Part shown: piece after piece, positions 36,880-63,338 of the stretch | Layout of the letters: each line of letters begins with the position of its first letter | Position numbering within the stretch: the stretch's first letter is position 1 | NCBI GenBank assembly: GCA_024763035.1 | Contig: JANTGG010000002.1 | Coordinates: forward strand, 48,970-112,969 | Direction of reading: 5' to 3' | From: Desulfocapsa sp. | GTDB lineage: Bacteria > Desulfobacterota > Desulfobulbia > Desulfobulbales > Desulfocapsaceae | Length of the DNA stretch: 64,000 nucleotides | The notes under the pieces: generated by a model | Seen by the model: the letters and a program-made list of their open reading frames with translations, nothing else | The model's database searches: none | Told to the model about the DNA's origin: nothing | Made by a program: the position numbers and the translations under genes

Positions 36880-37028
36880 TGATTAGCACTGAAGCTCAGG
36901 TAAATGTAAAATGGAACTGTAGGAGCTCGCCCCTGCGAACGATTTTCCAGGTCTGGCAACACCTTGAATCGCTCGCAGGGGCAAGCTCTTACGTCAAATC
37001 CAGATTAACTGTGCTTTGATGGTAATCA
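36880..37028 (+). mobile_element. MITE-like element family A, copy 1 (full length, with nested GTAG-type REP doublet at 36919-36992)
   Basis: Terminal inverted repeats TGATTAGCA/TGGTAATCA; internal GTAGGAGCTCGCCCCTGCG...CGCAGGGGCAAGCTCTTAC; arms recur at four other intergenic sites. Confidence 0.75.
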
Positions 37029-37365
37029 ATTTTAAAAATGTCTCGATTTTAAACGATATGCCTACTCCTGGACCAGCTCCTGATGGCGTGAAAAGGTTTA
37101 AGATAATCGCTGCCTGGTTTCAGCCTATCAAAATTGAAAGTCCTTATCCAGTCTTCCCTGAAAAAAACATTATGATTTTACTCTGTTTCATTTATGAGCC
37201 AATAATGGTTTTTTCCATGAAAAAATGTACATTCATTTTTTGACTATTTTCGTTCTGTCAGGCATAACTCATAAAAGAGGCAATTATTTTTATTGCTACC
37301 TCAGAAGTACTGATACTAAAGATTTCTTGTGACTTTCTTAAATTTCCTGAACGGAGGAGTGCTGC

Positions 37366-38679
37366 ATGTATATCAAAAAAAAATTATGGAAACTCTCTCT
37401 GACCATTCCGGGAGTGATCCTTTTTGCCGGCTCTGCCTGGGCAACCAACGGTATGAATATGATCGGCTATGGACCTCGTTCTGCTGCCATGGGCGGAGCC
37501 GATGTCGCTGTAACTTCTGATAGTTCTGCGGCTGCCGGGAATCCTGCTGCCATGGGAATCAGCAGTCCCCGCTCTGCCGCTATCGGGCTTTCTGTTCTCG
37601 CCCCCCATCTCAGCCTGTCCGATTCCAGGAATACTACTGATGGTGAGGATCAATTTTTTCCTCTGCCGCAGATGAGTTATGCACAACCCTTCGCTGATGG
37701 TTCCCCGTTGATCCTGGGGTTTAATCTCTATGCCCAGGGGGGAATGGGGGTGGATTTCAGGGATGTTGAGACATTTTCCGGGACCAGTGACTCATTGAGT
37801 TCTCAGGTAAGTTACGTGCGGTTTGCAGGGAGTTGTAACTATCGTGTGACTGACAGTTTGAGTGTGGGACTTACGGCAATGCTGGGGTATGCCGAGATGG
37901 ATTTCAGCCTCTTTCCCAATACTTACTCAGTGGGACGGGATGGTCAGGCGGGAACTGCTGATGATTTTGCCGGGGTGGACGCTTCCAACCTTGCAAATCT
38001 TGGTGTCGCCGGCCGGGTTGGTGTGCAGTATCAGCTCAGTCCCATGGTGCGCCTGGGCATGCAGTATACCAGTGAGGCGACGCTTGATCCCAAAAATGGA
38101 GATCTGACCCTGAACTTTGGGGCCATGCGGGTGGACTATGACGCTGAGGTGGAGGGCTTTACCTGGCCAAGGGAAGTTGAAGCAGGAATAGCCGTTCAGG
38201 CATCCGATAAACTGCTTCTGGCTGCTGATATTAAATGGCTGAACTGGTCATCTGCCATCGACAAGGTTGTGGTGAACGGGACATCTCCAAGCGAGGCTGG
38301 TATGCCATCCAGTCCCAGCCTTTTATTTAATATGAACTGGCAGGATCAGTGGGTTGTTGCTTTAGGCTGCGAGTACCTTGTCAGCACGGCACATACCCTG
38401 CGCATGGGCTATAACTATGGAAAAAATCCGGTGCCCGATGCTAATCTGAGTCCTCTCTTTCCAGCAACGGTGGAGCATCACCTGACAGTGGGCTATTCGT
38501 ATGTCTACAATTCGTACCATTTTGATTTTGCGTATGAACACGGTTTCGGTGAACAGTGGGTCAACAACAGCTACGGACCACCAGTTGATAATAATGGGAT
38601 CGCCAATCCTTTTGGACCGGGGGTGGCGGTGACGCATACCCAGGATGTGTTCCATTTTCAATTGAGTTATCTGTTTTAG
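37366..38679 (+). CDS. FadL/TodX-family outer-membrane channel (second paralog)
   Basis: Signal peptide, TNGMNMIG hatch, NPAAM motif, C-terminal YLF. Confidence 0.85.
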   Translation: MYIKKKLWKLSLTIPGVILFAGSAWATNGMNMIGYGPRSAAMGGADVAVTSDSSAAAGNPAAMGISSPRSAAIGLSVLAPHLSLSDSRNTTDGEDQFFPLPQMSYAQPFADGSPLILGFNLYAQGGMGVDFRDVETFSGTSDSLSSQVSYVRFAGSCNYRVTDSLSVGLTAMLGYAEMDFSLFPNTYSVGRDGQAGTADDFAGVDASNLANLGVAGRVGVQYQLSPMVRLGMQYTSEATLDPKNGDLTLNFGAMRVDYDAEVEGFTWPREVEAGIAVQASDKLLLAADIKWLNWSSAIDKVVVNGTSPSEAGMPSSPSLLFNMNWQDQWVVALGCEYLVSTAHTLRMGYNYGKNPVPDANLSPLFPATVEHHLTVGYSYVYNSYHFDFAYEHGFGEQWVNNSYGPPVDNNGIANPFGPGVAVTHTQDVFHFQLSYLF

Positions 38680-38732
38680 AAAGAGGTGTTGTCTGCCAAT
38701 TTTTTTTTGTCGTCCTGAGATGCCATCGCCGC

Positions 38733-40010
38733 CTAAAACCGTTTTTCAAAGTACGGCTGTAACACCTCTGGAATATTGACTGTTCCGTCTTCCTGCTGAT
38801 AGTTCTCCAGGATGGCAAGGAGTGTTCTTCCCACCGCCAGTCCGGAACCGTTCAGGGTGTGGAGGAGTCTGGACTTTTTTTCTCCTTTAGGGCGATAGCG
38901 GATACCTCCCCGGCGTGCTTGAAAGTCAAGAAAGTTGGAGCAGGATGAAATTTCCCGGTAGGTATCCTGTCCCGGCAGCCAGACCTCAATATCATAGGTC
39001 TTGGTGGACGAAAACCCCAGATCGCCGCTGCAGAGGGTTACCACCCGGTAATGCAGACCAAGGAGCTGCAGAACCTCTTCGGCATCGGCAAGCAGGCTTT
39101 CCAGTTCTTCGGAAGATGTCTCGGGAGTGGTGAATTTCACCAGCTCCACCTTGTCAAACTGATGCTGGCGAATAAGTCCTTTGGTATCACGACCGTAGGA
39201 GCCGGCCTCCGAGCGAAAGCAGGGGGTGTAGGCGGTGTATTTCACCGGCAGATCTTTCTCATCCAGAGTTTCGTCGCGGTAGATGTTTGTTACCGGCACT
39301 TCCGCAGTGGGAATAAGATAGAGATCCCAGTCTTTAATGGCAAAGAGATCTTCTGCAAACTTGGGCAGCTGACCGGTGGCAGTCATGGAGGCGGAGTTTA
39401 CCAGAAATGGCGGCAGTACTTCTTCATAACCGTGCTTCTGGGTGTGCAGATCGAGCATGAAATTGGTGAGTGCCCGTTCCATTTTTGAGGCAAATCCCTT
39501 TAACAGGGCAAAGCGGGCTCCCGAGAGTTTTGCCGCACATTCAAAGTCGAGTATATTCAGATCTTCGCCAACTTCCCAGTGTGGCTTGGGCTGGAAGGGG
39601 AAAACCGGTTTGTTTCCCCATTTCCTAAGCTCTACATTGTCGCAGTCGTCGTTTCCTTTGGGGACGTCATCACTGCAGAGATTGGGAATGGAAAGTACCA
39701 GATCCTGCAGACGACTCTGTATGGCACTGAGTTCCCTGTCCAGATCCTTGATCCGCTCGGATGCCTTGCGCATTTCGGGGATCAGTCCATCCGCTTCTTT
39801 TTTTTCTGCCTCACTGCCCTGTTTCAGTTTGGCAATCTCTTTGGAAGCTGTGTTACGACTGGCTTTTAGAGTCTCAACTTCCTGAAGCAGATTCAAACGT
39901 TTTTGATCCACCTCTGCAAATTCATCGACTTTATCTGTGGCAAGTCCTCTGTGGGCAGTTTTTTCACGAACAAGATCCAGATTCTCTCTGATAAAACGTA
40001 ATTCAAGCAT
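38733..40010 (-). CDS. serS: Seryl-tRNA synthetase
   Basis: [51 protein letters not shown]. Confidence 0.97.
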
Positions 40011-40092
40011 GATAACCTATGGGCTGAAGGGTTGATTAAAGGTATTTGCTGATGTTTAGCATGGCTATTGACTGAAATCAACCTCTATCAAA

Positions 40093-40121
40093 TTGCTTTT
40101 CTAAAACCCATCTGCTATCTT
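40093..40121 (+). promoter_or_regulatory. Possible extended -10 sigma-70 promoter of tatC
   Basis: TTGCTT-N17-TATCTT with TG at the extended -10 position. Confidence 0.4.
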
Positions 40122-40211
40122 ACGCCACGCGATGTTCTGCAATGTGCAGCTCAAAAGACGTCAGCCTGTCAGCTGATACAATAAATACCTGGAGAATCCG
40201 GTTGCCTGCCG

Positions 40212-40907
40212 ATGGATAAATACACCACCCTGGTCATATTTCTCTCTGAACTGAGAAAGTCTGTACGTGCATTGGGAATCACCTTGATTTTTGCCACGGC
40301 GGTTGTCTTTTTTCTTTCTCCCCATCTGCTGCAGGTTGTTCAGGATCATCTGTCCGGTAAACTCTACTTTTTCTCTGTGGCAGGGCCGTTTCTGGCCCAT
40401 GTGAAACTTTCCCTCTTTGCTGCCGTGTATTGCCTGACACCCTGGGTGATGACGGTGCTGTGGCGTGCCATGGGAAAACCATTCGGGATGCAGGGAAGCC
40501 AGCTGTTTTTCTTTGTCCTGTTTACCTGTCTGTTATTTTATGCCGGAACACTGTTCTGTTACTTTATAACCCTTCCCTTTGGCATAAAATTTCTGCTCGG
40601 CTTTGGTTCACAGGATCTGCATCCGGTGATCTCCATCGGGCGTTTTGTAAACTTTGTAACGATCTTTATCCTGGCATTTGGAGTTATTTTTGAACTGCCT
40701 ATATTTATGGTTTTTGTGGCAAAGGTGGGTCTGTTCAGCCGCCGGTTTTTTGAAAAAAACAGACGGTATGCCGTGCTGGTTATTGCCATCCTGTCGGCAG
40801 TGCTGACCCCGACGCCGGATGTTGTGAACATGCTTCTGATGGGTGGACCGTTGTATCTCCTCTACGAGGCGGGGATCGTTATTTTGATGGTGATGCGTAT
40901 TCAGTAG
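40212..40907 (+). CDS. tatC: Twin-arginine translocase subunit TatC
   Basis: LSELRK, FGVIFELP, RRYAVLVIAILSAVLTPTPD, LYEAGI. Confidence 0.93.
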   Translation: MDKYTTLVIFLSELRKSVRALGITLIFATAVVFFLSPHLLQVVQDHLSGKLYFFSVAGPFLAHVKLSLFAAVYCLTPWVMTVLWRAMGKPFGMQGSQLFFFVLFTCLLFYAGTLFCYFITLPFGIKFLLGFGSQDLHPVISIGRFVNFVTIFILAFGVIFELPIFMVFVAKVGLFSRRFFEKNRRYAVLVIAILSAVLTPTPDVVNMLLMGGPLYLLYEAGIVILMVMRIQ

Positions 40908-40957
40908 CAGGTGTCCCGGGAGTTTGGGCGAAAGACCATTCCCGGACAGCCTCCTGG

Positions 40958-41383
40958 CTAGAACTCGTGGAGTTTGTATCCGTTTTCTGTAAGGAGTGCA
41001 GCGGTTACTCCGATGGTGCCGGATACGGCACAGGATGGACTTCGTGCCTTGAGGCAGATGCCGTCGATGGCTTGCAGCTGTGCCAGCTGCAGTACCTGTT
41101 TTGCACCGGATACGAATGCGGAGGTGATATCATCACCTTCTTGCGTGTGAACAAATGCCCTACCCTGCAGCACGTCGTATCCGTCACCGTGAAGGATCTC
41201 TGCGGCGGTTCGTGGGGTGGGCAGTCCTCCGAGCTGTTCCGGACAGAAGGGGATTATGGTGCAGTCCTGCAAAAAATGCAGACAGGCTTTGTCGGTTTTT
41301 ATTTTTCCGTCGTAACGGGTACACAATCCCAGCAGGCAGGCACTGGCAAGAAAAACAGGTTTTACAGATGGTGGCTCAGGCAT
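40958..41383 (-). CDS. DUF523 family protein (2-thiouracil desulfurase-like Fe-S family)
   Basis: SACLLG..TRYDG, CPEQLGGLPTPR, LKARSPSC, GVTAALL. Confidence 0.88.
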   Translation of the reverse strand: MPEPPSVKPVFLASACLLGLCTRYDGKIKTDKACLHFLQDCTIIPFCPEQLGGLPTPRTAAEILHGDGYDVLQGRAFVHTQEGDDITSAFVSGAKQVLQLAQLQAIDGICLKARSPSCAVSGTIGVTAALLTENGYKLHEF

Positions 41384-41444
41384 GGTAGATGATACAATGA
41401 GAGTGAATGGATTGCAGCGGCACATACTTTACCGGTAGAATAGC

Positions 41445-41771
41445 ATGAAACGCAGACCAAAAACAGTCCTTTCGCCAATGCAGCGCAGGCGTTTAGCAAA
41501 GATAATTTCGGCTATTGTGTTTTTTACCCTCTTGTGGATAATTTTTGCACCGGGGTATGGTCTCTATTTTCTCCACAAAAAGAAGAAATATCTTGCAGAA
41601 TTGCAGGCAGAACAGCAGATTCTGATTGAGAACAATAAAAAGCTTGCCGGGGACGTGGAACGTCTGCAGCATGATCAGGCATACCTGGAAAAAATTGCCC
41701 GGGAAGAGCACGGAATGCTAAAAGAGAACGAGATGGTCTTTGATTTTTCCGGGAAAAAGAAAGAGAAATAA
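41445..41771 (+). CDS. ftsB: Septum formation initiator FtsB/DivIC
   Basis: One TM segment, coiled coil, YLEKIAREEHGMLKENE. Confidence 0.85.
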   Translation: MKRRPKTVLSPMQRRRLAKIISAIVFFTLLWIIFAPGYGLYFLHKKKKYLAELQAEQQILIENNKKLAGDVERLQHDQAYLEKIAREEHGMLKENEMVFDFSGKKKEK

Positions 41772-41844
41772 GGGGGAACACAAGGTGTCTCCAGTGCCCC
41801 CCGGAGAGCTGTTTTGAGACCGCACGGGTCTCGTCTGCCTATGC

Positions 41845-42057
41845 TCAGGAAAATCCGGAGCGTGAAGAGCATCCGGATAGAGCTCCTGCCGGAATGGATG
41901 TTCCATGGGTCGGTTGGTGACTGGTGGTGGAGATCATTTTCTTAATATTGGTGCTGCCGCAGTATTTGCATGTCAGCCCTTCGACTGCCGAGGCGATGAG
42001 GACAAGACTCTCGAAGTCTTTTCCGCAACCCTCACAGTGGAATTCGTAAATAGGCAT
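41845..42057 (-). CDS. FmdB-family zinc-ribbon protein
   Basis: MPIYEFHCEGCG...CKYCGS. Confidence 0.88.
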   Translation of the reverse strand: MPIYEFHCEGCGKDFESLVLIASAVEGLTCKYCGSTNIKKMISTTSHQPTHGTSIPAGALSGCSSRSGFS

Positions 42058-42161
42058 GGGGGTACTCCTGTTGTGTAAAGTAGCGTGGTCTTTCCTGTTG
42101 TACCGTTCCGGAGGAATGGTAAAATTCTACGCTTGACCTCCCGAAGATACACTATTCTTCA

Positions 42162-42233
42162 TGATACCCTCTGAAGCTCAGGTAAATGCAAAGTGGAACT
42201 GAAAAAAAATTAACTGTGCTTTCACGGCAATCA
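42162..42233 (+). mobile_element. MITE-like family A, copy 2 (core replaced by an A tract)
   Basis: CTGAAGCTCAGGTAAATGCAAAGTGGAACTG left arm joined to TTAACTGTGCTTT..GGCAATCA right arm. Confidence 0.7.
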
Positions 42234-42333
42234 CGTTACTGTTAGTATTTTGTCTGCAGGTGAATTTGTCAAGCAGCTTTTCTTTTTTTCAGGTATCACA
42301 CTGTGAAAAAAGACCCACGAAAGAGAAGAATAA

Positions 42334-43176
42334 ATGAAAAAGGAAGTTCTGCAGTTTTTACATGATGTCCGCTCTGTCCTGCAGTATCAGCAGGTCAGTT
42401 CTCTTGCGGAGTATCCTGATAGCAGAGAGCTCTCGTCTTTTCTGGCAATCCCCGAAAAAAAAGAAGCGGCTGCCCTGCAAAGGGAGGTTCTCCCGCAGAG
42501 TAGTAGTAACTCTGCGACTGGGCGTGAAAGAAAACATGCCGTAAAACCGGCGGTAAAAGTTTCTCCAAAAGTGAATCCCGGGAGCAAAACTGACCTGGCG
42601 ATTCTTACGGAAATAGCAGGGGAAGTCCGGCATTGCAAAGGCTGTGAGCTTGCCGCCCGGAGAAAATGCAGTGTCTGTGGAACAGGTGTTACAAAAGCTG
42701 TACGTCTTATGCTGATCGGACATTGGCTGACAGAACCGGAAGAAGGTCTCTCTGCCGAAAGCAGATCCGTTTTTGGTGCTCAGGAGGATGCGATGCTTGC
42801 AAAAATGCTGACCGCCATTCACCTTGATCCGGAAGAAGTGCTGGTGACCAACGTAATTAAATGCAGTGTCAGTCGGAACATACAGCCGCAGGCGGCACAT
42901 ATGGATGCCTGTTCCTCCTATCTGCAGCGTCAGATTAAGGCGGCGGCACCGGAAATGATCTGCACCATGGGCATGGTGGCGACCAGAACACTCCTCCAGC
43001 GTTCCCAACCCCTGTCCCGGTTACGTGGCAGATTCTACACCTACACCGATCTTGACGGAAAAGAGATCCCACTCCTGCCCACATTTCATCCCGGCTACCT
43101 GCTCCAGAATCCGGAAATGAAAAAGGCCACCTGGGCAGACCTGCAAGCCCTGGAAAAACGGATCGGCTGCAGATAA
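42334..43176 (+). CDS. Uracil-DNA glycosylase family 4-like protein with altered motif A
   Basis: CxxC plus TNVIKC plus C (Fe-S ligands), HPGYLL; GE(A/G)PG replaced by GHWLT. Confidence 0.82.
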   Translation: MKKEVLQFLHDVRSVLQYQQVSSLAEYPDSRELSSFLAIPEKKEAAALQREVLPQSSSNSATGRERKHAVKPAVKVSPKVNPGSKTDLAILTEIAGEVRHCKGCELAARRKCSVCGTGVTKAVRLMLIGHWLTEPEEGLSAESRSVFGAQEDAMLAKMLTAIHLDPEEVLVTNVIKCSVSRNIQPQAAHMDACSSYLQRQIKAAAPEMICTMGMVATRTLLQRSQPLSRLRGRFYTYTDLDGKEIPLLPTFHPGYLLQNPEMKKATWADLQALEKRIGCR

Positions 43177-43320
43177 AATACCTTTTTTCCTCCAAACACT
43201 GATGAACAACAGGTGAGTCCGGCATAAGTGTACTCACCGGCAAAATCGTAAGGGATGTTTCAGAGTCTTCCCGGATTCAGCAACACGTTATAAACATTTA
43301 CAGGAACGGTCTTCCTGTGC

Positions 43321-43701
43321 TTAATGCAGGGCGATAAGTTCTCTTTGCCCCAGACTTTTCAGAAATGCAGTGACGGCATGTTCCGCCTCCTGCACGGTAA
43401 TATTGTGGCTTTTGGAGAAATTGTAGATGATCTCCTTAACACTTCTTTTTCCGTCAATCTGCTGCCAGACATGGCTCCCGAGTTTGTCGAGCTGCAGTTT
43501 TCTGGTGGGTGAGCCTCCCCTGTTTTTCCCAAATCGTTTGTACAACGCCAAAAAGAATGGGCTCAGCGGCAGTGGGTAGGTGAAGAGGATGCTGCCGTCA
43601 TCCAGCTCCTCCCAGTGAATGGTGTCGTTTCGTTTGGGGACGCATTGCAGTGCCTGGGAGCGGCTGGGGACGGAGTCGGATTTAGAGGGGAATAATGTCA
43701 T
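43321..43701 (-). CDS. PqqD-family (RRE-like) protein
   Basis: LDKLGSHVWQQIDGKRSVKEII...AEHAVTAFLKSLGQRELI winged-helix pattern with an N-terminal beta extension. Confidence 0.8.
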   Translation of the reverse strand: MTLFPSKSDSVPSRSQALQCVPKRNDTIHWEELDDGSILFTYPLPLSPFFLALYKRFGKNRGGSPTRKLQLDKLGSHVWQQIDGKRSVKEIIYNFSKSHNITVQEAEHAVTAFLKSLGQRELIALH

Positions 43702-44548
43702 AGCTGGCAAGAATAGCATGAATTGTTTTTTCGGGAAGCGGTTTTTTATCCTCGAAGAACAGACCGCTCAGGCGGTCTTCCCGCCGGTGGTGGCGGAGGG
43801 TCATCCAGTGAAAAGGCATTTTGCGTTTGAGCCTGATAAGGATCTGCTGGGAAATCGTCGGCTGAGACTGATAGCATACCGAATCGTCTTCATGGATAAC
43901 AGCTGCTGTGTCCACCGGGATATCACCGAGGGTGAGCATAATTTCTGCAAGTGATGCCGTTTGCAGCCGCTCTGCTGCGGGTGCCAGACGACAGACGTAG
44001 AGAGTGGTTCCAGCCCGGGAAAAGCTCAAGCGACTGAGACCTGCGGCAAAGCTGTAGTTGTCGAGAATAAAGTCTGCCGGGATTTGCAGCTGAAAGTCCT
44101 GAATGGCCCAGAGGGTGCAGTCATTTTCCTTCCCCGGATGACATTGCAGGGAACGCAGAAGGTTGTGAGAATCTTTCAAAGATCCGGCAGAGTCTTCAAA
44201 AAAGACGAGGATGCTGGTGTGACATTTCCTGCAGGTAAGGAGTGCTGCCTTTATGATGCTGTGTTTTTTTTCTGTGAGCAGTGAAACACTGTATGATGCT
44301 GTCAGTGCCTTCCAGGAAGAGGGGAGAGTGGTTTGCAGGCTAAGGTCTGATTCCTGCTGCAGGTTGCGCAGGACAGCGGCGTGCCTGTCTTTTGTGTTTG
44401 TATGCCAGCGCAGCTCGAAGACGGGCTGGAAATCCTGTTCAAAGACAAGGTGCCTGTTGCCGGAGACAAAGGTCTCCCAGTTCACAGGGCAGGAAAAGCT
44501 AATCCCGTTCCAGCCCACAGTTCTGCAGGTGGTGGTGCCATCATCCAC
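43682..44548 (-). CDS. Hypothetical protein coupled to the PqqD gene
   Basis: 288-aa ORF 5 bp after the upstream gene and overlapping pqqD by 20 nt; two similar W...F..P..W/F segments. Confidence 0.7.
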   Translation of the reverse strand: MDDGTTTCRTVGWNGISFSCPVNWETFVSGNRHLVFEQDFQPVFELRWHTNTKDRHAAVLRNLQQESDLSLQTTLPSSWKALTASYSVSLLTEKKHSIIKAALLTCRKCHTSILVFFEDSAGSLKDSHNLLRSLQCHPGKENDCTLWAIQDFQLQIPADFILDNYSFAAGLSRLSFSRAGTTLYVCRLAPAAERLQTASLAEIMLTLGDIPVDTAAVIHEDDSVCYQSQPTISQQILIRLKRKMPFHWMTLRHHRREDRLSGLFFEDKKPLPEKTIHAILASYDIIPL

Positions 44549-44553
44549 AACAG

Positions 44554-45138: not shown

Positions 45139-45350
45139 TGGAGTACTCCTGTAATAAGTGAAAGAAAATATATACTATCCATGTATCATGGAATAAAGTT
45201 TCCTTCCAGTGGAAATACATCTTGCAATAGTGTTATAATCCAGCGACAATCTTCTCAGTCCTTTCTCTGTATCTGCCAACCCGTTCTTCTGACGAACATT
45301 CAGCCGCTGAGAAGAAGAGTCTCAGGAGCTGATAATACCTTTTTTTTCTG

Positions 45351-47909: not shown

Positions 47910-47910
47910 A

Positions 47911-48417
47911 ATGGAAGGGATTTCACATCTCACGGATACCCAGGAATTTATTGAGAAACTTGCGGTATTTGCAGGGGCTCCAGAGGGTGTTTCCAGGATG
48001 TTTGCCTATCTTGCCAGGAGAGAAAAATATAGCAAAGGACAGGTGATCCTCGAGCAGGGGAAAGAGTGTGACCGTTGTTTTCTCATTATCTCGGGACAGG
48101 TTGATATCTTTCAGATGCATCATGATCGACGGTTTCATGTGCAGCTGTTAAGCGATGATTCAATCAATTATTTCGGAGAGCTGGCACTGCTTGCTGAGTT
48201 TAACTGGTTTTTCTCGGCAAGGGCGTGGACAGATGTGGTGCTGCTCTCCATCAGCCGGGAGGCATTCAGCAAGGTGCTGGAGCGGTATCCGGAATCGTAT
48301 CAGAAGATGGTGCAGAAAATTATTACCCTTCGTATCCAACGTTTTTCTGCTCAGACCAGCTATCAGCTCGATCATCTTGCCCCGGATGCCTGGCGGGAGG
48401 ATCCGCCGGAGGAATAA
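47911..48417 (+). CDS. Stand-alone cyclic-nucleotide-binding domain protein
   Basis: ILEQGKECDRCFLIISGQV, YFGELALL; starts 1 bp after the ABC stop. Confidence 0.85.
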   Translation: MEGISHLTDTQEFIEKLAVFAGAPEGVSRMFAYLARREKYSKGQVILEQGKECDRCFLIISGQVDIFQMHHDRRFHVQLLSDDSINYFGELALLAEFNWFFSARAWTDVVLLSISREAFSKVLERYPESYQKMVQKIITLRIQRFSAQTSYQLDHLAPDAWREDPPEE

Positions 48418-48460
48418 AAAAAACAGGCAAGCGAAGACTCCGGGAAAATTATCTGTAAGG

Positions 48461-48592
48461 TACTGAGCTATGTTTACTGCAGGAGCTCGCCCCTGCAGGC
48501 GATCCAGGGTGTTGCCAGACCTGGGAAATCGCTCGCCGGGGGGGGACTCCTGCGGTTCTACCTTGCGTGTATCTGTATTTCAGTGCTCAGTA
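48461..48592 (-). mobile_element. MITE-like family A, copy 3 (inverted, diverged, full REP-like core)
   Basis: Core 48478-48552 matches the reverse complement of 36919-36992; has its own terminal inverted repeat TACTGAGC/GCTCAGTA. Confidence 0.7.
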
Positions 48593-48595
48593 GTA

Positions 48596-48928: not shown

Positions 48929-49030
48929 TTTCTTCTCCTTTGTCTGTTTCGGTAAACTGCTGACTTGCCAACTTTATCCATGTTGTTTTTATGCTGCATC
49001 TCTCTTGACTGTTACCTGGTCAATAATACA

Positions 49031-51761: not shown

Positions 51762-51785
51762 AGATAAAACAGGTGTCAGGGTTAA

Positions 51786-51846
51786 GGTACTTATACCCCT
51801 CGCGGGGGTACTGAAAAGAGTACCGGCTTGCTATTCATCACCGGTG
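51786..51846 (+). repeat. 61-bp structured repeat family B, copy 2
   Basis: Ungapped match to 25852-25912; 17 bp from a family A copy. Confidence 0.8.
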
Positions 51847-51863
51847 TTATATGTATTCTTTCA

Positions 51864-51955
51864 TGATTACCACTGAAGCTCAGGTACATGCAAAATGGAA
51901 CTGTAGGGCGAGCTCTTACATCCAATCCAGATTACTTGTACTTTGATGGTAGTCA
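51864..51955 (+). mobile_element. MITE-like family A, copy 4 (core collapsed to GTAGGGCGAGCTCTTAC)
   Basis: TGATTACCACTGAAGCTCAGG...CTTTGATGGTAGTCA. Confidence 0.75.
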
Positions 51956-52009
51956 CTTATTCTTTTGTGCATGCAGTTGCATGTGAACTCCCTTTGATCA
52001 ATCAATCGC

Positions 52010-57000: not shown

Positions 57001-58841
57001 TTTCGCGGTTTCTTGCCGGTGTGCAGGGGCGCGGTGCCGGCAAGGGTCTCAATCATATCTCCCACAAGAAGAGCCTGCTCTTCCAGACTCTTCCAGTTGA
57101 TATGCTTTGGAATATCCCAGGGGGTACCCCATAATGCCCGGGCATCTCCGGTGGTGACCAGACTGATGCCGACATAGCCGGCAAGGGATGCCACTTCTCC
57201 GCCCAGCGGAGGTTTGTCAAGAAACCAGGAGTCCCAGGAACGCATGTGGCTGGAGTGCAGAGTGTCGTGATAGGGGGTCGTGCTGCTGCTTGCGGCAACA
57301 GTTTCTTCAAGAAGATCGGCAATGGGGGAGAAGATACCTGTGCGATTCACCTGCATCTTCAGGTTGTATAAAAATCCCTGGTGAAAAGCCCCTATTCCAT
57401 TGCCATGACTGGAGAGATGGAGGGAAACCATGGCAGCAATGTCATAGCCTTCAACCAGTTCCCGAAAGGCATAGGCACTCTTCAGGTTCTTGAGATGTGT
57501 TTTGAGTTCTTTTTTTCGGCGTTTATTGGTCTTTATGGAAGCGGGAACAGCAGCCAGAAAGAGTTTGTGCTCATCGTCGCCCAGATCGTGAAAGCTGCTT
57601 CGCCAGCCCATCCTTTTGTAGAGCAACCGTGTTCTGGAGAGTTCATTAATATTTTTTTTCCTTTCTTCGCTCTTGTCGCTAGCCATTCGCAGAGTGTTGA
57701 GTCTGCGGGAGATATCATCCACGGAGAGTTTGATATAGTCGCTCATTGCCTCGCTGAGTACCGAGTCCCTTTCCATATCTTCGGTGAGGGGCCAGCTGAG
57801 CGATTCCAGAACGGCAAGATTGGCACTGGTTTGTTTCAGATCTTTTTTCAGCTGTTTTTTCTGTTTTTTTAAATATTTTGATTTGGAGTTGATGGACCAG
57901 ATAAGATCTCGCATTCCGGCAAGGGATTCATTGTGACCACTTGTGGCAACGAAGAGCACCGATTTCTTTGGTGGATTTTTTCTCAGTCTGTCAATGGTCT
58001 GCAGCAGGGTGGCAATGGAGGCAGCTTCATCGGCGCCGGGTGCTTTGCCGGAAACAAAGGAGGAACTGTCGTAAAACGCCTCTATGACCAGTAGCTGTCT
58101 GGCAAGTTCCGGATCTGTGCCGGGAATAACAGTGTAAATATTTTCTGCGGTGATTTCCTGCCACTGAACCCGGCTGTTGATATTTACTTTTTCTGCAAGT
58201 AGACCGGGCGTGTCGGGAAGAGTTATTGGCAGAGTGGAGAGAAATTGTTGTAATCCCTGCTTTTCCATCCAGAAGCAGGGGAGCTGGATGGGAGTGAGCT
58301 CCTCTTTTTCCTGGAACATATATTTTGAATGTACATCCTGGGTGTTCAGGTAGATAATCGCCTTAACACCCAGTGCCGCCAGCTGCTGCCACCGTTGTCC
58401 GGAATCAAAATCCAACACCACCACAGCTCCGGAAAGGGGCAGTCCCTGCAGGTCTGACCAGGTGCCTGATTTTACGTAGTAGAGTGGGCCGCTCAAGGCA
58501 CCATCTGTTGTTTCCGGGGTAATGGCATTATAGAAAAGGGTGTTGAGTGCAAGTGTTTTCCCATCTATCTGCAGGTTGGCGTCTTTCACCTTGCGTACAG
58601 TCAGGGCAAAACGGTAGGTTTCAGGGGTGAGTCCCATCTGCTGCAGCTGCGCTTTGATAAAAGCCGCACTTTCCCTGCTTCCTTCACTGCTGCCTGTTCT
58701 TTCGGAGAAACTGCTGAAGGTTTCTATCTGCTGTCGCAGGGACAGGGAGGGGACAGCTGCTGTTTTGGCAGAGACAGGGTAAAGAAAGAGAGCTGCAAGA
58801 AAAAACAGCAGTCCGGTTCTGTGGAGAGAAGAGGAAGACAT
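54000..58841 (-). CDS. 1613-aa fusion: M28-peptidase-like/PA domain, TM bundle and MacB/FtsX permease
   Basis: Signal peptide; EAFYDS...PGADE and FVATSGH M28-like motifs; NLRRRRMRTILT (MacB TM1); SVYERKNEIAIYTSVG (FtsX). Confidence 0.8.
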   Translation of the reverse strand: MSSSSLHRTGLLFFLAALFLYPVSAKTAAVPSLSLRQQIETFSSFSERTGSSEGSRESAAFIKAQLQQMGLTPETYRFALTVRKVKDANLQIDGKTLALNTLFYNAITPETTDGALSGPLYYVKSGTWSDLQGLPLSGAVVVLDFDSGQRWQQLAALGVKAIIYLNTQDVHSKYMFQEKEELTPIQLPCFWMEKQGLQQFLSTLPITLPDTPGLLAEKVNINSRVQWQEITAENIYTVIPGTDPELARQLLVIEAFYDSSSFVSGKAPGADEAASIATLLQTIDRLRKNPPKKSVLFVATSGHNESLAGMRDLIWSINSKSKYLKKQKKQLKKDLKQTSANLAVLESLSWPLTEDMERDSVLSEAMSDYIKLSVDDISRRLNTLRMASDKSEERKKNINELSRTRLLYKRMGWRSSFHDLGDDEHKLFLAAVPASIKTNKRRKKELKTHLKNLKSAYAFRELVEGYDIAAMVSLHLSSHGNGIGAFHQGFLYNLKMQVNRTGIFSPIADLLEETVAASSSTTPYHDTLHSSHMRSWDSWFLDKPPLGGEVASLAGYVGISLVTTGDARALWGTPWDIPKHINWKSLEEQALLVGDMIETLAGTAPLHTGKKPRNGFSTIRGRANLLLQGELFADYPAAKTVLLAYQGMQKYHTTVNSSGIFRIKGIADKKHVLDKLIIEGYRFDEKTGQVIWAIDKKETGKKHYRVKIKKRLVKTDLILFSCRQTTIFGLLEPRNFNYLTKLKLFDGRRDAPPQHYWYSRIDTRDSTMASIYTEPGTWLKATLSDNVLNRKMILTNGTEKNPMGLGYSVDKYQTIPNTVYQAARDIWTLLAPRIQNLENHGIFDAKINNLEERGITALLNAGDSLKNLDYARFSSFSSESLALANRVYVQVEKTQKDVLFGVLFYIALFVPFAFCMERFLFNFANIYKRIVGFSTILFLLITVIYQVHPAFRLAYSPTVVILAFFILGLSLMVSLIIFFRFEEEMILLQRRASHKRPAEISHWKAFTAAFFLGVSNLRRRRMRTILTCLTLIILTFTIMSFTTVKSGTRQNKLFFQEHSPYLGLLLKQVDWRSLPVEAVDGLADGFQNAGSVAPRIWLEAKNPAQTVHISLQNGRKHAELQGLIGLSPAEAQVTGLDKLLTGGRWFNKNDRAAIILSEDMVNALSIATDGSASVQIWGCPFTVVGTFKGTDFDQTLDLDGEPLTPVTFPDESAGDITEVEKDAMESGDDVRSFQSRYHHIPASRVGIIPASTLLTLGGKLKNLAVLPNAETPISKTAERMTDRFSTAIFAGEKDGVYLYNQNESMQYSGVPNILIPLFISILIVLNTMISSVYERKNEIAIYTSVGLAPSHVSFLFVAEALALAVISVVLGYLLAQVSASLFADTPLWAGLTVNYSSMAGVAAMILVIAVVLLSVVYPSRVAARIAIPDVNASFSLPPVINNRITVTLPFFMKYSEHNSICGFIYNYFSSHQDVSHGLFSTGPVEIVSSCCNIDEMRDVINASDKPHEIHCTYFRANVWLAPFDFGIMQRVDIQFCPAREDSSYLEIKISMERRSGEEQIWKRIATSFLHEIRKQLLVWRSTDAASHTYYGKHFLEFTEKSRQAAGTGESTHG

Positions 58842-58867
58842 GGTGCGTTACAGTGTCTGCAGGCAGA

Positions 58868-59596
58868 TCAGCTGTTCATCCCTCCCGTATGAATTTCCAG
58901 TTCGTCCCGTTCCTGAATCTTCTCCACCTTTCCGTCCCGAATCCAGATAACCTGATCCGAGACGTTCAGCATTTTGAAATCATGGGTGGCTGAAATAACC
59001 GTTACCCCCTGGTTTGCACTCATCTCTTTTAAGAGAGAAATGACCTCTTCACCGGTTGCCAGGTCGAGGTTGCCGGTGGGTTCATCGGCAAGGATGATGG
59101 CGGGACTGTTTGCAAGGGCACGTGCCACGGCAACCCGCTGCTGCTGACCGCCGGAGAGCTCAGACGGCTTGTGGTTATGACGCCCTTCCAGCCCCACCTG
59201 CCTGAGCAGTTTCATGCCGCGTTCAGTGGAGGCTTCTCCCGGCATGCCGCCAAAGGTCATGGGCAGGGTGACGTTTTCCAGGGCTGTCATCACAGGAATC
59301 AGGTTGAATGTCTGAAAGATATAGCCGATCTTTCGGCAGCGAAGCCAGGCGAGTTCGTATGCGTCGAGTTGAGCAATATCCACTTCATCAATAAAGACCT
59401 TCCCCGCAGTTGGTTTGTCCAGTCCTCCTATCATGTTGAAGATAGTGGATTTTCCTGATCCAGATGGACCCATGATTGAGACATATTTACCGGTTTCAAT
59501 GCTGAGGTCGATCCCTTTCAGGACCTTGACCACGATTTTCCCGAGATCAAAATCTTTTGTGACATCGGTTACCCGAACGATATTTTTTACACTCAT
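58868..59596 (-). CDS. LolD/MacB-type ABC ATPase
   Basis: GPSGSGKST, LSGGQQQRVAVARAL, LADEPTGNLD, ATHD. Confidence 0.93.
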   Translation of the reverse strand: MSVKNIVRVTDVTKDFDLGKIVVKVLKGIDLSIETGKYVSIMGPSGSGKSTIFNMIGGLDKPTAGKVFIDEVDIAQLDAYELAWLRCRKIGYIFQTFNLIPVMTALENVTLPMTFGGMPGEASTERGMKLLRQVGLEGRHNHKPSELSGGQQQRVAVARALANSPAIILADEPTGNLDLATGEEVISLLKEMSANQGVTVISATHDFKMLNVSDQVIWIRDGKVEKIQERDELEIHTGGMNS

Positions 59597-59631
59597 ATAC
59601 TGAGGTCCTTCACCACCGCTTTGGAGATGGG

Positions 59632-60282
59632 CTACTGTTCTACACGCATTGCCTCAACGGGCTGCATCCGGGAGGCTATTATCGCCGGATACAAAACCCC
59701 AATGAGGCTGAGACTGATTCCAATAAGTACGGATGTTGCCATGGAGAGAACAAAAGACTGATAGGGAGGGGTGGCAAATGCCTCACTTCCGAAACGAAAC
59801 CAGGCAGTGAGAACGGCAAACAGACCCCCGCCCAGAGCACCAATGACTGCCCCGGCAAAACCCTGCATGGCAGCTTCCATGACAAAGATACGAACGATAA
59901 AGCGGTCAAGTGCCCCCAGACATTTCATGGTGCCGATTTCCCGGAAGCGTTCGCTGACGGACATCAGCTGGGCATTAATAATGCCCACGATGCAGACCAG
60001 CATGGAGAGGGTGAGAATCCACCGCTGTTTGGGAGATGATGCGAGACTGGTATCTCCGGGGAGCACGTCATAGCCGCAGCGGATAAGGGTCTGGCACGTG
60101 GTGTTGTCACCGCTTGCAAGCATTCCATCTGCGATATTGATGCTGATTTGGGAAAATGCCAGAAAGGAAACGGCGAGAACCAGGGTTACAGTGGTGACGA
60201 TGGAGCGAAAGAAGCGGGCACGGATTGATTTGTAGGCAATCTCCACGGATTTGCTCCAGGGCAGCACGATAAGGCGGCTCAT
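59632..60282 (-). CDS. Minimal FtsX/MacB-type ABC permease with almost no periplasmic domain
   Basis: SIRARFFRSIVT (TM1), a loop of about 40 aa, SVSERFREIGTMKCLGA. Confidence 0.85.
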   Translation of the reverse strand: MSRLIVLPWSKSVEIAYKSIRARFFRSIVTTVTLVLAVSFLAFSQISINIADGMLASGDNTTCQTLIRCGYDVLPGDTSLASSPKQRWILTLSMLVCIVGIINAQLMSVSERFREIGTMKCLGALDRFIVRIFVMEAAMQGFAGAVIGALGGGLFAVLTAWFRFGSEAFATPPYQSFVLSMATSVLIGISLSLIGVLYPAIIASRMQPVEAMRVEQ

Positions 60283-60324
60283 ACTGTAAATCCTTTTCGG
60301 GTCATCGTAGTGTTTTTTTTGTTT

Positions 60325-62520
60325 TCAGGATGAGGGTTTTGCTGCCAGCTGGTCTTTAATCACCTGGTACATGGTTTCCGGATGCAGGGGTTTGCTGATA
60401 TAGTCATCCATGCCGGCATCAAGGCATTTTTGCCGATCACCCTGTATGGCATGGGCGGTCATGGCAATAATGGGGATATGGCCGCCTGTCAGTTTTTCGT
60501 GATCCCGAATGGCTTTGGTTGCCTGGTAGCCGTCCAGTTCAGGCATCTGTATGTCCATCAGTATAGCATCAAATGATTCTTTTTTGAAGCATTCAACTGC
60601 TTCACGTCCATTGGCAGCAGAAACAATGGTGATCCCCTTTTTTTCCAGGAGTGCTTTGGCAAGCAGCAGGTTGACAGTTTCATCTTCAGCAAGCAGAATA
60701 ACCGCATCCTGAAACGGCGATCGCCGGTTGGATACTATTTCTTTTGTCTGTTTCATTGCTACACTGTCTTGCTCCGGGAGCTTGAAATGGCTGATAAACC
60801 AGAACGTCGTTCCTTTGTTTTTCTCACTGATAAGATGCAGCTTTCCACCCATCAGCCGGCAGAGTTGGCTGGAAATCGTAAGTCCCAGTCCTGTTCCGCC
60901 GTATTTTCGTGTGTGTGAGGTGTCCGCCTGGGTAAATGATTCAAAAACACGATCCTGTTCCTCTCTGGCAATTCCTATGCCGGTATCTTTTACTGCAAAG
61001 TAGAGGGTACAATGACCGTCCTGTATTTCCTCCAGGTGGATTATGAGGGAAACCGATCCGACCTGAGTAAATTTTAAGCCATTATTAACAAGATTTGTTA
61101 ATATCTGCATCAGACGTGTGGGGTCTCCGATAAGTTTTTCGGGAATATCGGGAGCAAGGTAGCTGCGTAACTCCACCTTCTGGCTGTCTGCCTGGGGAGC
61201 CATTAGAAAAAAGAGTTCGTTTATTTTTTCCTCAAGGGAAAAAGGAATGGCTTCGAGCTGCAGCTTGCCCGCTTCGATTTTGGAAAAATCGAGTATACTG
61301 TTGATCACGTCAAGCAGTCTGGTGGTTGAACTGTCGACTATCTGCAGCTGTTGCCGCTGTTCCCGGGAAAGCTCACTGTTTAACAAAAGGTTCGTCATCC
61401 CCATAATACCGTTCATGGGAGTGCGGATCTCATGGCTCATGTTTGCCAGAAAATCACCCTTCGCCTTGTTGGCACTTTCCGCCTCATCCCTTGCCTGGAT
61501 AAGAGACTTTTCCGTATTTTTACGCTGTTCGATCTCCTTTACCATTTTTGCTGTGAGCTGTCTTTCTGTGTTTTTTGAGATAAAATTTATGGTCAGCAGA
61601 TAACCAAGGACGATGGAAAGAAACAGGACGGTGAGAACAGTCGGATAGACAGGCTGCTTTTTTTCAAGGGTGTATACATGCCAGCCGGGAAGATCAATCG
61701 GGGTCACTGCAACTCTGTAGGAAGTGTTGTCGAGCTGCACGTCATCTTCTGTGAGGTCAAAAGGGAGATCGGATAGCGGTTCGTTTCCAAACTGTCTGGA
61801 TTGTATGAGTTTCTCCTTTTCCCGGGCGGGCAGAGGTCTGCCTGCATGAAAGAGCCACTGGTCGTATCCATTGGAAGTGGCGAAGACAATATCCGTATCA
61901 GAGAGCAGAAAGGAGATCCTGGGAGTATTATCGGTGAGTATGGCGGAGAGCTGTTCCATTCCCGATTTAATGACCACCACACCCACGACTGTTTCCTGAT
62001 TGTCGCGTATGGGAGAGCTGAAATAGAGTCCGCGTTTATTGGTGGTTACTCCAAGGGCAGCGTAACAGTAACTGTGCCCTGCCATGGCGTTGCTAAAGTA
62101 GGGGCGGAAGCGGTAGTTGTTTCCCTGCAGTATGATGTCGTCGCTGGTGCTGGAGGCTGTTACCAGTCCTTCTTTATTCATCACATAGACAAAGGCTGCA
62201 GCAAGGATATCTCTTACAGCAGCTAACTCAGCGAGCAGTGCTTTTCCCGGCGCAGGTTCTTTCTGGAGGGCACTGCTGAGGATTTCAGGTCGTCTGCCCA
62301 GTTTCCGGGTGGCATTGGTGAACTGTTTTGTCAGAAGGGAATTGATATGGTCGGCGGTTGTTGCGGAGTGGCGGATATTATTTTTGATACTGTATATCTT
62401 TTGTCCCTGGAGGACAATGAGGAGCATAACCATAAAAACCAGCAGACAGTTGAGAAACAGGAAGAGGAGCTTCTTTCTCAGGGCATCATGGGTAGCGGCA
62501 ATTCGAACTGGGTTTGTCAT
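60325..62520 (-). CDS. Hybrid histidine kinase (DctB-like Cache, HisKA, HATPase, REC)
   Basis: [10 protein letters not shown] Cache motif, [30 protein letters not shown]. Confidence 0.92.
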
Positions 62521-62647
62521 ACCATGGTGATGAGCAGATTTTTCCGGTGCCGGAGTGAGCTGAATGATTGTCTCGGTGGATCATCTCCTGCAAGCATATC
62601 GTGTTCCCTGTGGACTTGTCAATGAATACGATTCCCAGTTTTTAATG

Positions 62648-62680
62648 AAAAAAAAGGGAAGACCTGTCAAGGTCTTCCCT
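62648..62680 (-). terminator. Intrinsic terminator after the tatA genes
   Basis: AGGGAAGACC-N6-GGTCTTCCCT followed by a T tract on the minus strand. Confidence 0.85.
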
Positions 62681-62724
62681 GATATAAAAAGGCAATGGGG
62701 ATGATAGTGTTTTCCGGTCTGTGT

Positions 62725-62979
62725 TTATTTTAAAATCTTACTGATATTACCGATGTTTTTCACTGTGTCGATCTTGTCTTTTACTGCAGAGACCTCTTTG
62801 ACTCCCGGTACATCGTCAATGATGCTCTTTCCGCTCTCTTCAATATCACCCATCCCTTTTTTAAAGGAAGAGATCGCCTTACCAAGACCGGAGCCCAGTT
62901 CGGGGAGTTTTTTACCGCCGAAGACAAGTACGGCAATGCCCAGGATTACGATAAGTTCCGGTGTTCCAAGTCCAAACAT
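62725..62979 (-). CDS. tatA: TatA/E family subunit, copy 2
   Basis: MFGLGTPELIVIL...VFGGKKLPELGSGLGKAISSFKKG. Confidence 0.9.
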   Translation of the reverse strand: MFGLGTPELIVILGIAVLVFGGKKLPELGSGLGKAISSFKKGMGDIEESGKSIIDDVPGVKEVSAVKDKIDTVKNIGNISKILK

Positions 62980-63024
62980 GGGTGGTTCTCCTGTTGAGGG
63001 AAAAGGCTGCCTGAATGGGGACGA

Positions 63025-63210
63025 TCAGGTGGCAGAATCGTCTTTCGATTCGTCGTCGATAGATTTTGTCTCTTCTTTTTTGGTAGCATCTTTGAAATTT
63101 TTGATCCCCTTTCCAATTCCTGACCCAATTTCAGGCAGTTTGCCTGCTCCGAAAATAATAACAATGATGACCAGAATAACTATCAGCTCCGGCATACCAA
63201 GTCCAAACAT
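63025..63210 (-). CDS. tatA: TatA/E family subunit, copy 1
   Basis: [13 protein letters not shown]...[24 protein letters not shown]. Confidence 0.93.
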
Positions 63211-63245
63211 AGCAATCCTCTATATAAAAATGGAATAATAAAACG

Positions 63246-63338
63246 CGATTTCCATTAAAGCACAGGTAAGCTGGATCTGATGCAGGGCTGATCTCCTGCG
63301 GTTCCATTTCGCATTTACCTGAGCTTCAATGGTAATCA
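63246..63338 (-). mobile_element. MITE-like family A, copy 5 (inverted; single-hairpin core)
   Basis: Reverse complement TGATTACCATTGAAGCTCAGGTAAATGCGAAATGGAACC-GCAGGagatcagcCCTGC-...CTGTGCTTTAATGGAAATCG. Confidence 0.75.

Follow-up and report, generated by a model that had tools for sequence, protein, structure and literature searches.

MITEs with IS1595-type ends and a REPIN core in a Desulfocapsa genome

REPINs are thought to depend on a single, vertically inherited RAYT transposase and to fade once that RAYT is lost. BIMEs and REPs are also reportedly targets of insertion sequences (IS1397, ISKpn1 and others), as Tobes and Pareja are said to have described in 2006. The described systems closest to the repeats analyzed here are the REPINs and RAYTs (Bertels & Rainey 2011, PMC3116915; Nunvar et al. 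2010, PMC2817692; Di Nocera et al. 2013, PMC3733652) and the IS-derived bacterial MITEs, for which we compared Correia/NEMIS, RUP, ERIC, Nezha, and MITEAba12 (PMC6382973). As in the REPIN/RAYT systems, the repeats are built on a GTAG-headed REP of ~25 nt with a short GC-rich hairpin, paired into an inverted doublet that forms a long hairpin. They are likewise extragenic, with units in the hundreds, and in sister species these REPs stand on either side of a single RAYT gene, whose flanks agree with the REP variant.

The window, a 64,000-nucleotide stretch of a Desulfocapsa sp. contig (JANTGG010000002.1), was analyzed together with its own assembly, denoted G000, a 3.3-Mb metagenome-assembled genome (MAG) that is 92% complete and comprises 209 contigs. 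All coordinates are window positions. An earlier note on this DNA had listed five copies of a repeat and none in the first 36 kb. All five were found where it had placed them, and no copy was detected in window positions 1-36877 (BLAST, E<=1e-3). The features are as follows.

36870-36877 (TTTGAAAA) and 37031-37038 (TTTAAAAA): target-site duplication of the copy at 36878-37030, 7/8 matching
36878-37030, + strand: full-length MITE copy, 153 bp, 96% identity to the consensus; left arm 36878-36918, REPIN core 36919-36992 (74 bp), right arm 36993-37030
36919-36992, + strand: REPIN core, consisting of a 26-nt GTAG REP, a 22-nt spacer, and an inverted REP; 26-bp hairpin
42160-42235, + strand: core-less copy, 76 bp, left arm intact
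48412-48465, + strand: one half of a repeat from a second palindromic family, ending ...AAAATTATCTGTAAGGTACT; adjoins the copy at 48466-48595 and lies outside the MITE family
48466-48595, - strand: old, degenerate copy, lying where two genes converge
48479-48553: REPIN doublet of the copy at 48466-48595, 75 bp
51854-51861 and 51958-51965: target-site duplication of the copy at 51862-51957, TATTCTTT, perfect 8 bp
51862-51957, + strand: short copy, 96 bp, core collapsed to the 17-nt residue GTAGGGCGAGCTCTTAC
63236-63243 and 63341-63348: target-site duplication of the copy at 63244-63340, TAATAAAA, perfect 8 bp
63244-63340, - strand: short copy, 97 bp, with the 18-nt residue GCAGGAGATCAGCCCTGC (element orientation)

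In the core-less copy, the core plus the first 12 nt of the right arm have given way to a G followed by eight A, and the target-site duplication is weak (5/8). The degenerate copy at 48466-48595 has a left arm with ~65% identity to the consensus and a right arm shortened to 14 nt, and the canonical terminal inverted repeats (TIRs) are gone at both ends. This copy had been credited with a different, self-complementary terminus, read as a sign of selection on end pairing. Both TACTGAGC and GCTCAGTA are indeed found on its flanks, but they are not an alternative TIR of its own: GGTACT is the conserved terminus of the unrelated abutting repeat (AAAATTATCTGTAAGGTACT), a family with ~30 matches genome-wide, and the half copy at 48412-48465 supplies the apparent "TACT" terminus. 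Selection on end pairing is not supported by this copy, since one of the two termini belongs to another repeat family.

The family extends far beyond the five window copies. A genome-wide BLAST search, suggested earlier as a check on copy number, recovered 165 merged loci in G000, including ~42 full-length copies with 84-97% identity to the consensus. REP units gave 131 motif matches in G000, versus 0 for a reversed-pattern control. The MITE unit is 153 bp, non-coding, and multicopy, with imperfect TIRs of ~26 bp (CATGATTACCACTGAAGCTCAGGTAA and AGTGATTACCATCAAAGCACAGTTAA, the latter being the reverse complement of the right end). A search for target-site duplications found one of 8 bp, AT-rich and with sharp boundaries, just outside the TIRs: across 42 copies, flank-versus-flank identity per column was 0.69-0.86 in a block of exactly 8 columns, falling to 0.14-0.40 beyond it. 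Perfect 8/8 duplications were observed at many loci, the window copies at 51862 and 63244 included. A 169-bp subfamily with a 16-nt insertion was identified at no fewer than four loci, most with duplications of their own. The paired copies were intergenic in 53 out of 55 cases, versus a crude coding fraction of 87%. Many contig breaks of the MAG fall inside MITE copies, and for annotation the family accounts for many of these breaks.

At either end, the outermost ~26 nt were found to be the TIRs of an insertion sequence, (C)CTGATTACCAC(T)RAAGCTCAGGTA. Contig C66 of a sister species (G020) carries an intact 1,062-bp IS within a perfect 8-bp duplication (TTTACCGA). The TIR of this IS1595 parent (CCTGATTACCAC...) matches 23 nt of the G000 copies exactly. 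The 315-aa protein of the IS matches PF12762 (DDE_Tnp_IS1595) with 119.8 bits and PF12760 with 54.2 bits, and the IS1595 family makes 8-bp direct repeats. MITEs with the same TIRs and unrelated cargo also exist. The TIRs, the sharp 8-bp duplication, and the cognate parent in a sister species bear out the earlier description of the repeats as MITE-like. Each copy is very probably a non-autonomous DDE transposon (MITE) derived from an IS1595-family IS and carrying a REPIN, which fits the composite non-autonomous element proposed before: IS1595-type ends around a REPIN core. The cognate IS was not found in the G000 assembly, where only a remote pseudogene (C108) was present. A search of G000 for TIR pairs 300-5000 bp apart yielded nothing beyond adjacent MITEs and chance matches, whether or not a duplication filter was applied, and the G000 contig ends with a TIR all run on as MITE sequence, none as IS.

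To characterize the core, we analyzed the REP motif and its occurrence across genomes. The REP is 26 nt long (GTAG GA GCTCGC CCCY GCGAGC GAT), with the GTAG head followed by a 6-bp hairpin. Folded as DNA, a single REP hairpin has -7.5 kcal/mol and the consensus core -37 kcal/mol (z = -12). There are 43 REP doublets in G000, and 42 of them have a spacer of 22 nt. The REP also occurs as arm-less singlets and in at least one arm-less doublet (L010 in G017); a second candidate, L141, has sequence beside its REP head that resembles the MITE inner arm. The suggested covariation check gave two-sided compensatory changes in 4 of the 6 stem pairs across species, with 96% of cells paired and a covariation score reached by 0 of 500 shuffles, all among hand-picked REP variants.

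A RAYT flanked by the core REP had been proposed as a further check. RAYT genes flanked on both sides by the window REP were found in two sister species, G018 (Desulfocapsa sp. MC-05) and G017, and not in G000. The MC-05 RAYT ORF (L032/L086) scores 122.9-135.8 bits against NF047646 (cut-off 80), and the PDB contains a single relative, E. coli TnpA-REP (4ER8). All 29 REP units of G017 have the compensated variant GCCCGC/GCGGGC, which is also the one found in the RAYT flanks there. The REPIN layout is that of the two REPs bracketing the RAYT gene in the sister species, minus the gene. With the inverted GTAG REP doublet, the arm-less singlets, and the same REP flanking a RAYT in two sister genomes, the nested GTAG-REP core of the earlier note stands, and the middle of the MITE is shown, at the level of sequence, to be a REPIN and not IS sequence. 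In G000, TIRs and 8-bp duplications frame the doublets, so the core is REPIN-derived while the whole repeated unit is not a REPIN; dispersal by a RAYT leaving no target duplication was not found in G000.

The absence of a RAYT, noted before for the window, holds for the whole 92%-complete assembly. The only RAYT-like sequences in G000 were fragments of other clades (C170, C171, C207, C5, C15, C88), which group with those of G004 and G005. PF01797 matches on C80 (at the contig end, a C-terminal IS200-like fragment) and C77 (dubious) were rejected as RAYTs. The RAYT-like genes of G004 and G005 were rejected as partners, none having the window REP within ~2.5 kb. A collapsed or unbinned IS or RAYT may lie outside the G000 assembly.

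We considered whether the family could instead be maintained chiefly for a function as a structured RNA or DNA element, such as an mRNA 3'-end stabiliser, RNase III target, terminator, or protein-binding site. E. coli REPs stabilise upstream mRNA. The whole element folds into one hairpin (-86.6 kcal/mol, z = -12), copies are nearly always intergenic, with 63244-63340 directly 3' of the stop codon of ORF 62753-63238, and the REP stem covaries across species. However, recognition of a single-stranded DNA hairpin by a RAYT predicts this covariation equally. No Rfam match at gathering score was found anywhere in the window (E-value thresholds gave only spurious miRNA-precursor hairpin matches far below threshold), there is no terminator-like T tract, and a promoter/terminator scan of copy 36878-37030 gave nothing decisive. 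The orientation relative to flanking genes (21 versus 11) was not significantly biased. In G000 decay has gone on at the same pace in REP stems, spacer, and arms, and the hairpin has been deleted repeatedly. A structured RNA, as suggested earlier, is therefore improbable as the primary nature of the family.

Divergence among the G000 copies was 4-13% in every segment of the element. The median identity to the consensus was 93%, and nearest-neighbour identity did not exceed 95.4%. This even decay along the copies suggested that the MITE family is old and inactive in this genome, where it would now be decaying neutrally. On the GTAG strand, C>T changes numbered 50 and G>A changes 28, counts that are inflated by inherited changes.

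The junctions of the short forms are of at least four kinds; among them is an 18-mer, GTAGGAGCTCGCCCCTGC, that occurs also as its mirror image, the reverse complement. Their core residues are 17-19 nt, ~5 nt, or none. The 17-19-nt residues combine sequence from both REP ends, and the 81-85-nt forms have CCTAC, CCTGC, or TCTCC as their middle segment. Short copies share no common arm variants, and one (C27:3754) keeps the 169-bp subfamily insertion, which indicates derivation from a long form. From their junctions and residues, the short copies are recognized as products of separate microhomology-associated deletions in the long palindrome. The "states of decay" seen at first can thus be read as independent core deletions, with sequence decay even along the element, and they provide a natural series of how long perfect palindromes get trimmed at microhomologies. 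The reverse order, with short core-poor copies as the ancestral MITE and REPINs inserted repeatedly within this genome, is very unlikely. Three of the four 81-85-nt copies do share a similar 5-nt middle, (C/T)CT(A/G/C)C, and the MITEs of other species and of a second TIR lineage hold REPIN cores with different spacers. Against this, the 17-19-nt residues contain both REP ends at their several junctions, one short copy retains the subfamily insertion, a single 22-nt spacer prevails in G000, and its assembly has no RAYT to insert REPINs. The 81-85-nt forms could in part represent a REP-free ancestor instead of deletions.

IS200/IS605-type Y1 transposases generate no target duplication. A REPIN-type element moved as a whole 153-bp unit by a RAYT (HUH/Y1), with the arms part of the RAYT-recognised sequence, would account for the GTAG REP doublets (the REPIN hallmark), the cognate RAYT in the genus, and the CCTAC ATCCA after the REP head in RAYT flanks and MITE right arm alike, but it is largely refuted by the sharp 8-bp duplication outside the TIRs and by TIRs equal to those of a DDE IS1595 element with the same duplication, and has hardly any chance when same-TIR MITEs carry unrelated cargo and the genomes richest in copies are without a RAYT.

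For the IS1595-derived MITE with a REPIN core, we propose that two inverted GTAG REPs were captured between IS1595 ends and that the composite moved under the IS1595 transposase, each insertion duplicating 8 bp of AT-rich target. The duplications just outside the TIRs and the 16-nt-insertion subfamily at several loci suggest that REPIN and IS ends moved as one unit. The uniform spacer, in 42 of 43 doublets, suggests that capture happened once and that amplification came after it. Since the doublets lie within the TIRs and the duplication, growth in copy number would be attributable to the DDE transposase and not to a RAYT. MITE transposition would have raised the REP to ~130 units in an assembly without RAYT or IS; so many units may be found in a RAYT-less assembly because a DDE-type MITE carried the doublet. 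The 26-bp perfect palindrome would be unstable and lost by replication slippage between short direct repeats, themselves probably created by the symmetry of the REP within the doublet. Such slippage would leave 17-19 nt or ~5 nt, or delete the core wholly. An effect on neighbouring genes, for example through a -87 kcal/mol hairpin in transcripts, would be a by-product.

The same REP family was found inside MITEs of two IS1595 lineages in Desulfocapsa, with the TIR CTGATTACCACTAAAGCTCAG in G000, G005, G018, G020, and G024 and the TIR CTGATTACGTACGAAACTCAG in the RAYT-bearing G017. REPIN spacers differ among species, and REP variants track the local RAYT. With the second lineage (G017), the association recurs. 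It is conceivable, as a tentative reading, that REPINs in Desulfocapsa are systematically nested in IS1595-type MITEs and not by accident. The hairpin-forming centre of these MITEs may be a preferred site of REPIN insertion by the RAYT; alternatively, a REPIN aboard a DDE vehicle may escape RAYT dependence and outlive its RAYT. If true, either would be an undescribed two-transposase partnership of HUH-type and DDE-type selfish DNA. If general, REP counts would be no readout of RAYT activity, MITEs could serve as vehicles for other mobile DNA, and the REP family with its two IS1595 lineages would be a tractable case for HUH-DDE interaction. At one flanking gene, sister species have 70-74% nucleotide and 56-61% amino-acid identity, and the right-hand gene is not syntenic; the orthologous locus in these divergent, non-syntenic relatives has no TIR or REP. 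A search for near-identical strains with two flanking ORFs found none on record.

Judged from its sequence, the element is two unrelated kinds of selfish DNA nested in one. In the literature we found no published REPIN inside a DDE-type MITE. Unlike in REPIN systems, nearly every doublet here has IS1595-type TIRs on both sides and an 8-bp duplication around these, and the genome with the most units holds no RAYT in its assembly. With the IS-derived MITEs the family shares the TIRs of a full-length IS, a fixed-length duplication, the lack of coding capacity, an intergenic location, the ability to fold into a long hairpin, and survival beyond the parent IS. It differs from them in that the inner segment is not what a deletion left of the IS but an entire mobile unit belonging to a different class, the REPINs, and in that sister MITEs with the same TIRs bear other cargo. 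As with the IS that target BIMEs and REPs, REPs and IS are physically associated in intergenic DNA. However, whereas IS1397 and ISKpn1 insert into the REP or BIME, the REP doublet here is enclosed by the IS ends and moves along with them.

All five copies that an earlier note had reported in the window were confirmed, and a repeat search of the window tied them together by shared left arms, shared right arms and inverted matches. In the assembly holding the window (G000; 3.3 Mb, 209 contigs, 48% GC, 92% complete; window at C2:48970-112969), the five copies gave 742 BLAST matches, which merged into 165 loci. None of these loci lies in window 1-36877, in agreement with the absence of copies from the first ~36 kb noted earlier. 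About 42 copies are full length, with the consensus CATGATTACCACTGAAGCTCAGGTAAATGCAAAATGGAACT, then GTAGGAGCTCGCCCCTGCGAGCGATT TTCCAGGTCTGGCAACACCTTG AATCGCTCGCAGGGGCGAGCTCCTAC, then ATCAAATCCAGATTAACTGTGCTTTGATGGTAATCACT. Contig ends frequently fall within copies, so the true copy number is higher than counted.

MITE copies and adjoining repeats in the window
36779-36877: third repeat, about 100 nt, ending exactly at the start of MITE copy 1
36878-37030, + strand: MITE copy 1, flanked by TTTGAAAA and TTTAAAAA
42160 (start), + strand: MITE copy
48412-48465: second repeat family
48466-48595, - strand: MITE copy (48461 in the earlier note)
51785-51850: second repeat family
51862-51957, + strand: MITE copy, TATTCTTT flanking each side
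63244-63340, - strand: MITE copy, TAATAAAA flanking each side

The 153-bp family, previously described as MITE-like, is a true MITE. Its ends are imperfect inverted repeats of about 26 nt, and comparing the flanking sequences of 42 copies at every offset revealed a single sharp block, with identity of 0.69-0.86 over exactly 8 columns versus 0.14-0.40 immediately outside. Perfect 8-bp target-site duplications were found at many copies. Among paired copies in G000, 53 of 55 were intergenic, compared with 87% of the genome lying under crude ORFs, and no bias toward a type of intergenic region was detected; orientations relative to tandem genes were split 21 versus 11.

Each half of the 74-bp palindromic core is a REP unit headed by GTAG that forms a separate hairpin of 6-bp stem and 4-nt loop (GTAGGA GCTCGC CCCY GCGAGC GAT); the core as a whole is a REPIN. 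This motif has 131 matches in G000 when up to 2 mismatches are allowed (reversed control, 0) and was found in 11 of 30 genus genomes; when one genome per GTDB species was scanned, exact matches were confined to Desulfocapsa-type MAGs. Of the 43 doublets in G000, 42 have a 22-nt spacer, and nearly all are situated between MITE arms. G000 also contains about 11 perfect singlets without any arms, so the REP exists apart from the MITE as well. In a set of 18 distinct variants gathered by hand, two-sided compensatory changes were found at 4 of 6 stem pairs (GCCCGC/GCGGGC, GCTTGC/GCAAGC, GTCCGC/GCGGAC, GCTAGC/GCTAGC, GCCCAC/GTGGGT); 96% of all cells were paired and the covariation score was reached by 0 of 500 shuffles. 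On the GTAG strand of REP units in full-length G000 copies, C>T changes number 50 versus 28 G>A, and single stem changes are more commonly wobble-compatible than pair-breaking. Past selection on the hairpin of one strand may have left this pattern, or inherited variants may account for it.

The same REP brackets a RAYT gene in two other genomes, in support of the nested GTAG-REP core proposed in the earlier note. In Desulfocapsa sp. MC-05 (G018:C24, locus L032), an ORF adjoining a REP match scored 122.9 bits against NF047646, 'REP-associated tyrosine transposase' (cut-off 80 bits), and 135.8 bits across the full profile in a genome-wide search. Its sole relative in the PDB is E. coli TnpA-REP (4ER8); the HUH and YI..NP motifs of the two proteins align. 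REP doublets flank the gene on both sides, and the orientation of the inner REPs toward it matches their relative orientation in the MITE core. The G017 orthologue carries one TGA and lies between single REPs in inverted orientation, of the compensated GCCCGC/GCGGGC variant, which is carried by 29 of 29 REP units in that genome. The earlier statement that the window lacks a RAYT extends to the whole G000 assembly, where the cognate gene is absent and only fragments of other, longer RAYT-like clades occur. The REP-bearing MITE is likewise present in G024, G041, G004 and G005, in which no cognate RAYT above the cut-off was found.

In L032 (4900-5650), a bioB-like gene adjoins the RAYT, and a diverged duplicate of roughly its first 40 nt lies at the opposite end of the RAYT cassette, immediately beyond the REP doublets; this may be a footprint of the cassette's arrival. 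A different RAYT clade (L081-L084, from G003, G008, G042 and G043; 187-195 aa, ~202 bits on NF047646), without this REP in its flanks, presumably serves another REP family. Outside the window, G000 C80:14880-15101 holds an IS200-type TnpA C-terminal fragment (...FWAKGYCVSTVGLDAEMIREYIKHQDK) near a contig end, upstream of a multihaem cytochrome gene.

No TIR pair enclosing a transposase was found in the G000 assembly. Searching three sister genomes for the TIR pattern yielded a single pair, separated by 1,058 bp, on G020:C66. This IS1595-family element (L099 541-1602; 1,062 bp) starts CCTGATTACCACTAAAGCTCAGGTA, has the inverted sequence at its other end, and is bounded by a perfect TTTACCGA duplication. 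Its 315-aa product matches DDE_Tnp_IS1595 (119.8 bits) and the IS1595 zinc ribbon (54.2 bits), and the end of the element is identical over 23 nt to G000 MITE copies. The transposase frame closes with ...EDWW-TAA, its stop codon falling within the right TIR (TGGTGGTAATCAGG). Among 30 genus genomes, the close transposase is intact in G020 only, and survives as a pseudogene or a fragment in G004, G006, G001 and G023; G000 has only one remote pseudogene (30% identity, 3 stops). Same-TIR MITEs with perfect duplications in G020, G018 and G005 have very different interiors, consisting of unrelated AT-rich or palindromic sequence in some and REP doublets in others. Those with unrelated cargo in G020 and G018 (L117-L123) measure 132-195 bp, most with perfect 8-bp duplications. 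Among these is a near-identical pair of 188 bp, oppositely oriented, in G020, the only genome with the intact IS, and the family looks recently active there.

By the segment between their arms, MITE copies in G000 were sorted into four classes, listed here by element length.

Classes of MITE copies by element length
About 153 nt: about 39 copies, full core
169 nt: 4 copies, 16-nt insertion after the G of GTAG
About 97 nt: 8 copies, 17-19-nt core residue
61-85 nt: 5 copies, core almost or wholly gone

The 169-nt copies occupy separate loci, and most are flanked by duplications of their own, so transposition moves the whole composite. Four or more distinct junctions occur in the 97-nt class; among the residues are the core's initial 18 nt (GTAGGAGCTCGCCCCTGC) and the mirror image of these, its final 18 nt, as expected of slippage between CCTGC and CCTAC or between GTAGG and GCAGG. 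A short copy at C27:3754 retains the 169-subfamily marker and thus derives from a long form, and the short forms hold no arm variants in common. In G000, divergence from the consensus is similar across segments (TIRs 9-13%, inner arms 6-12%, REPs 5-8%, spacer 4%), with a median identity of 92.8% and nearest-neighbour identity of at most 95.4%. Together with the multiple junctions, this bears out the states of decay described earlier, and the pattern is consistent with an old burst and neutral decay since then, with the REP not maintained here.

One earlier suggestion, selection on end pairing, was not supported. The left arm of the copy at 48466-48595 is ~65% identical to the consensus, and its right arm ends after 14 nt, at the terminus of the second repeat family (…AAAATTATCTGTAAGGTACT). 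What looked like a self-complementary terminus is thus made up of parts of two separate elements and gives no evidence for such selection. The second family is a long palindromic element (...AGTACCTTATTAGAAATTTTCTTGCGAAAAAAACAAGAAAATTATCTGTAAGGTACT..., outer arms CAGTACCCCCTTGAGGGGTATA) with about 30 genome matches, directly adjoining two of the five window MITE copies. The third repeat has 10 copies in G000 (77-86% identity), many in most genus genomes (76-89%) and no Rfam match; it may represent a further MITE, or else a conserved leader or small RNA.

Full-length MITE copies of other species match the G000 consensus at 81-88% identity, while an orthologous flanking gene shows 70-74% DNA and 56-61% protein identity across species. 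The REP is identical across species at 25/25 nt and the TIR at 20/20 nt, and the spacers and inner arms vary. From these comparisons we infer that the family may have spread horizontally, or that both sets of cis-signals may be constrained. The G017 REPINs lie within MITEs of another TIR, CTGATTACGTACGAAACTCAGCC, which belongs to a paralogous IS1595 clade (57-58% protein identity) that shows a perfect ATAAAAAT duplication in G010. REPs nested in MITEs are thus found with two IS lineages, a recurrence that may result from targeted REPIN insertion, repeated capture or co-divergence. At least one arm-less doublet occurs in G017 (L010); in a candidate second (L141), sequence next to the REP head resembles a MITE inner arm.

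The MITE consensus folds into one hairpin (-86.6 kcal/mol, z = -12), has no Rfam match and carries no terminator-like tail; effects on neighbouring transcripts may occur. The overall interpretation in the earlier note is supported. Full-text searches of the REPIN/RAYT literature (PMC3116915, PMC3337134, PMC2817692, PMC3733652) and of bacterial-MITE papers turned up no description of REP doublets enclosed by DDE-type TIRs with target-site duplications. The components are each well known; what is new is the nesting of a REPIN in a MITE and its recurrence.
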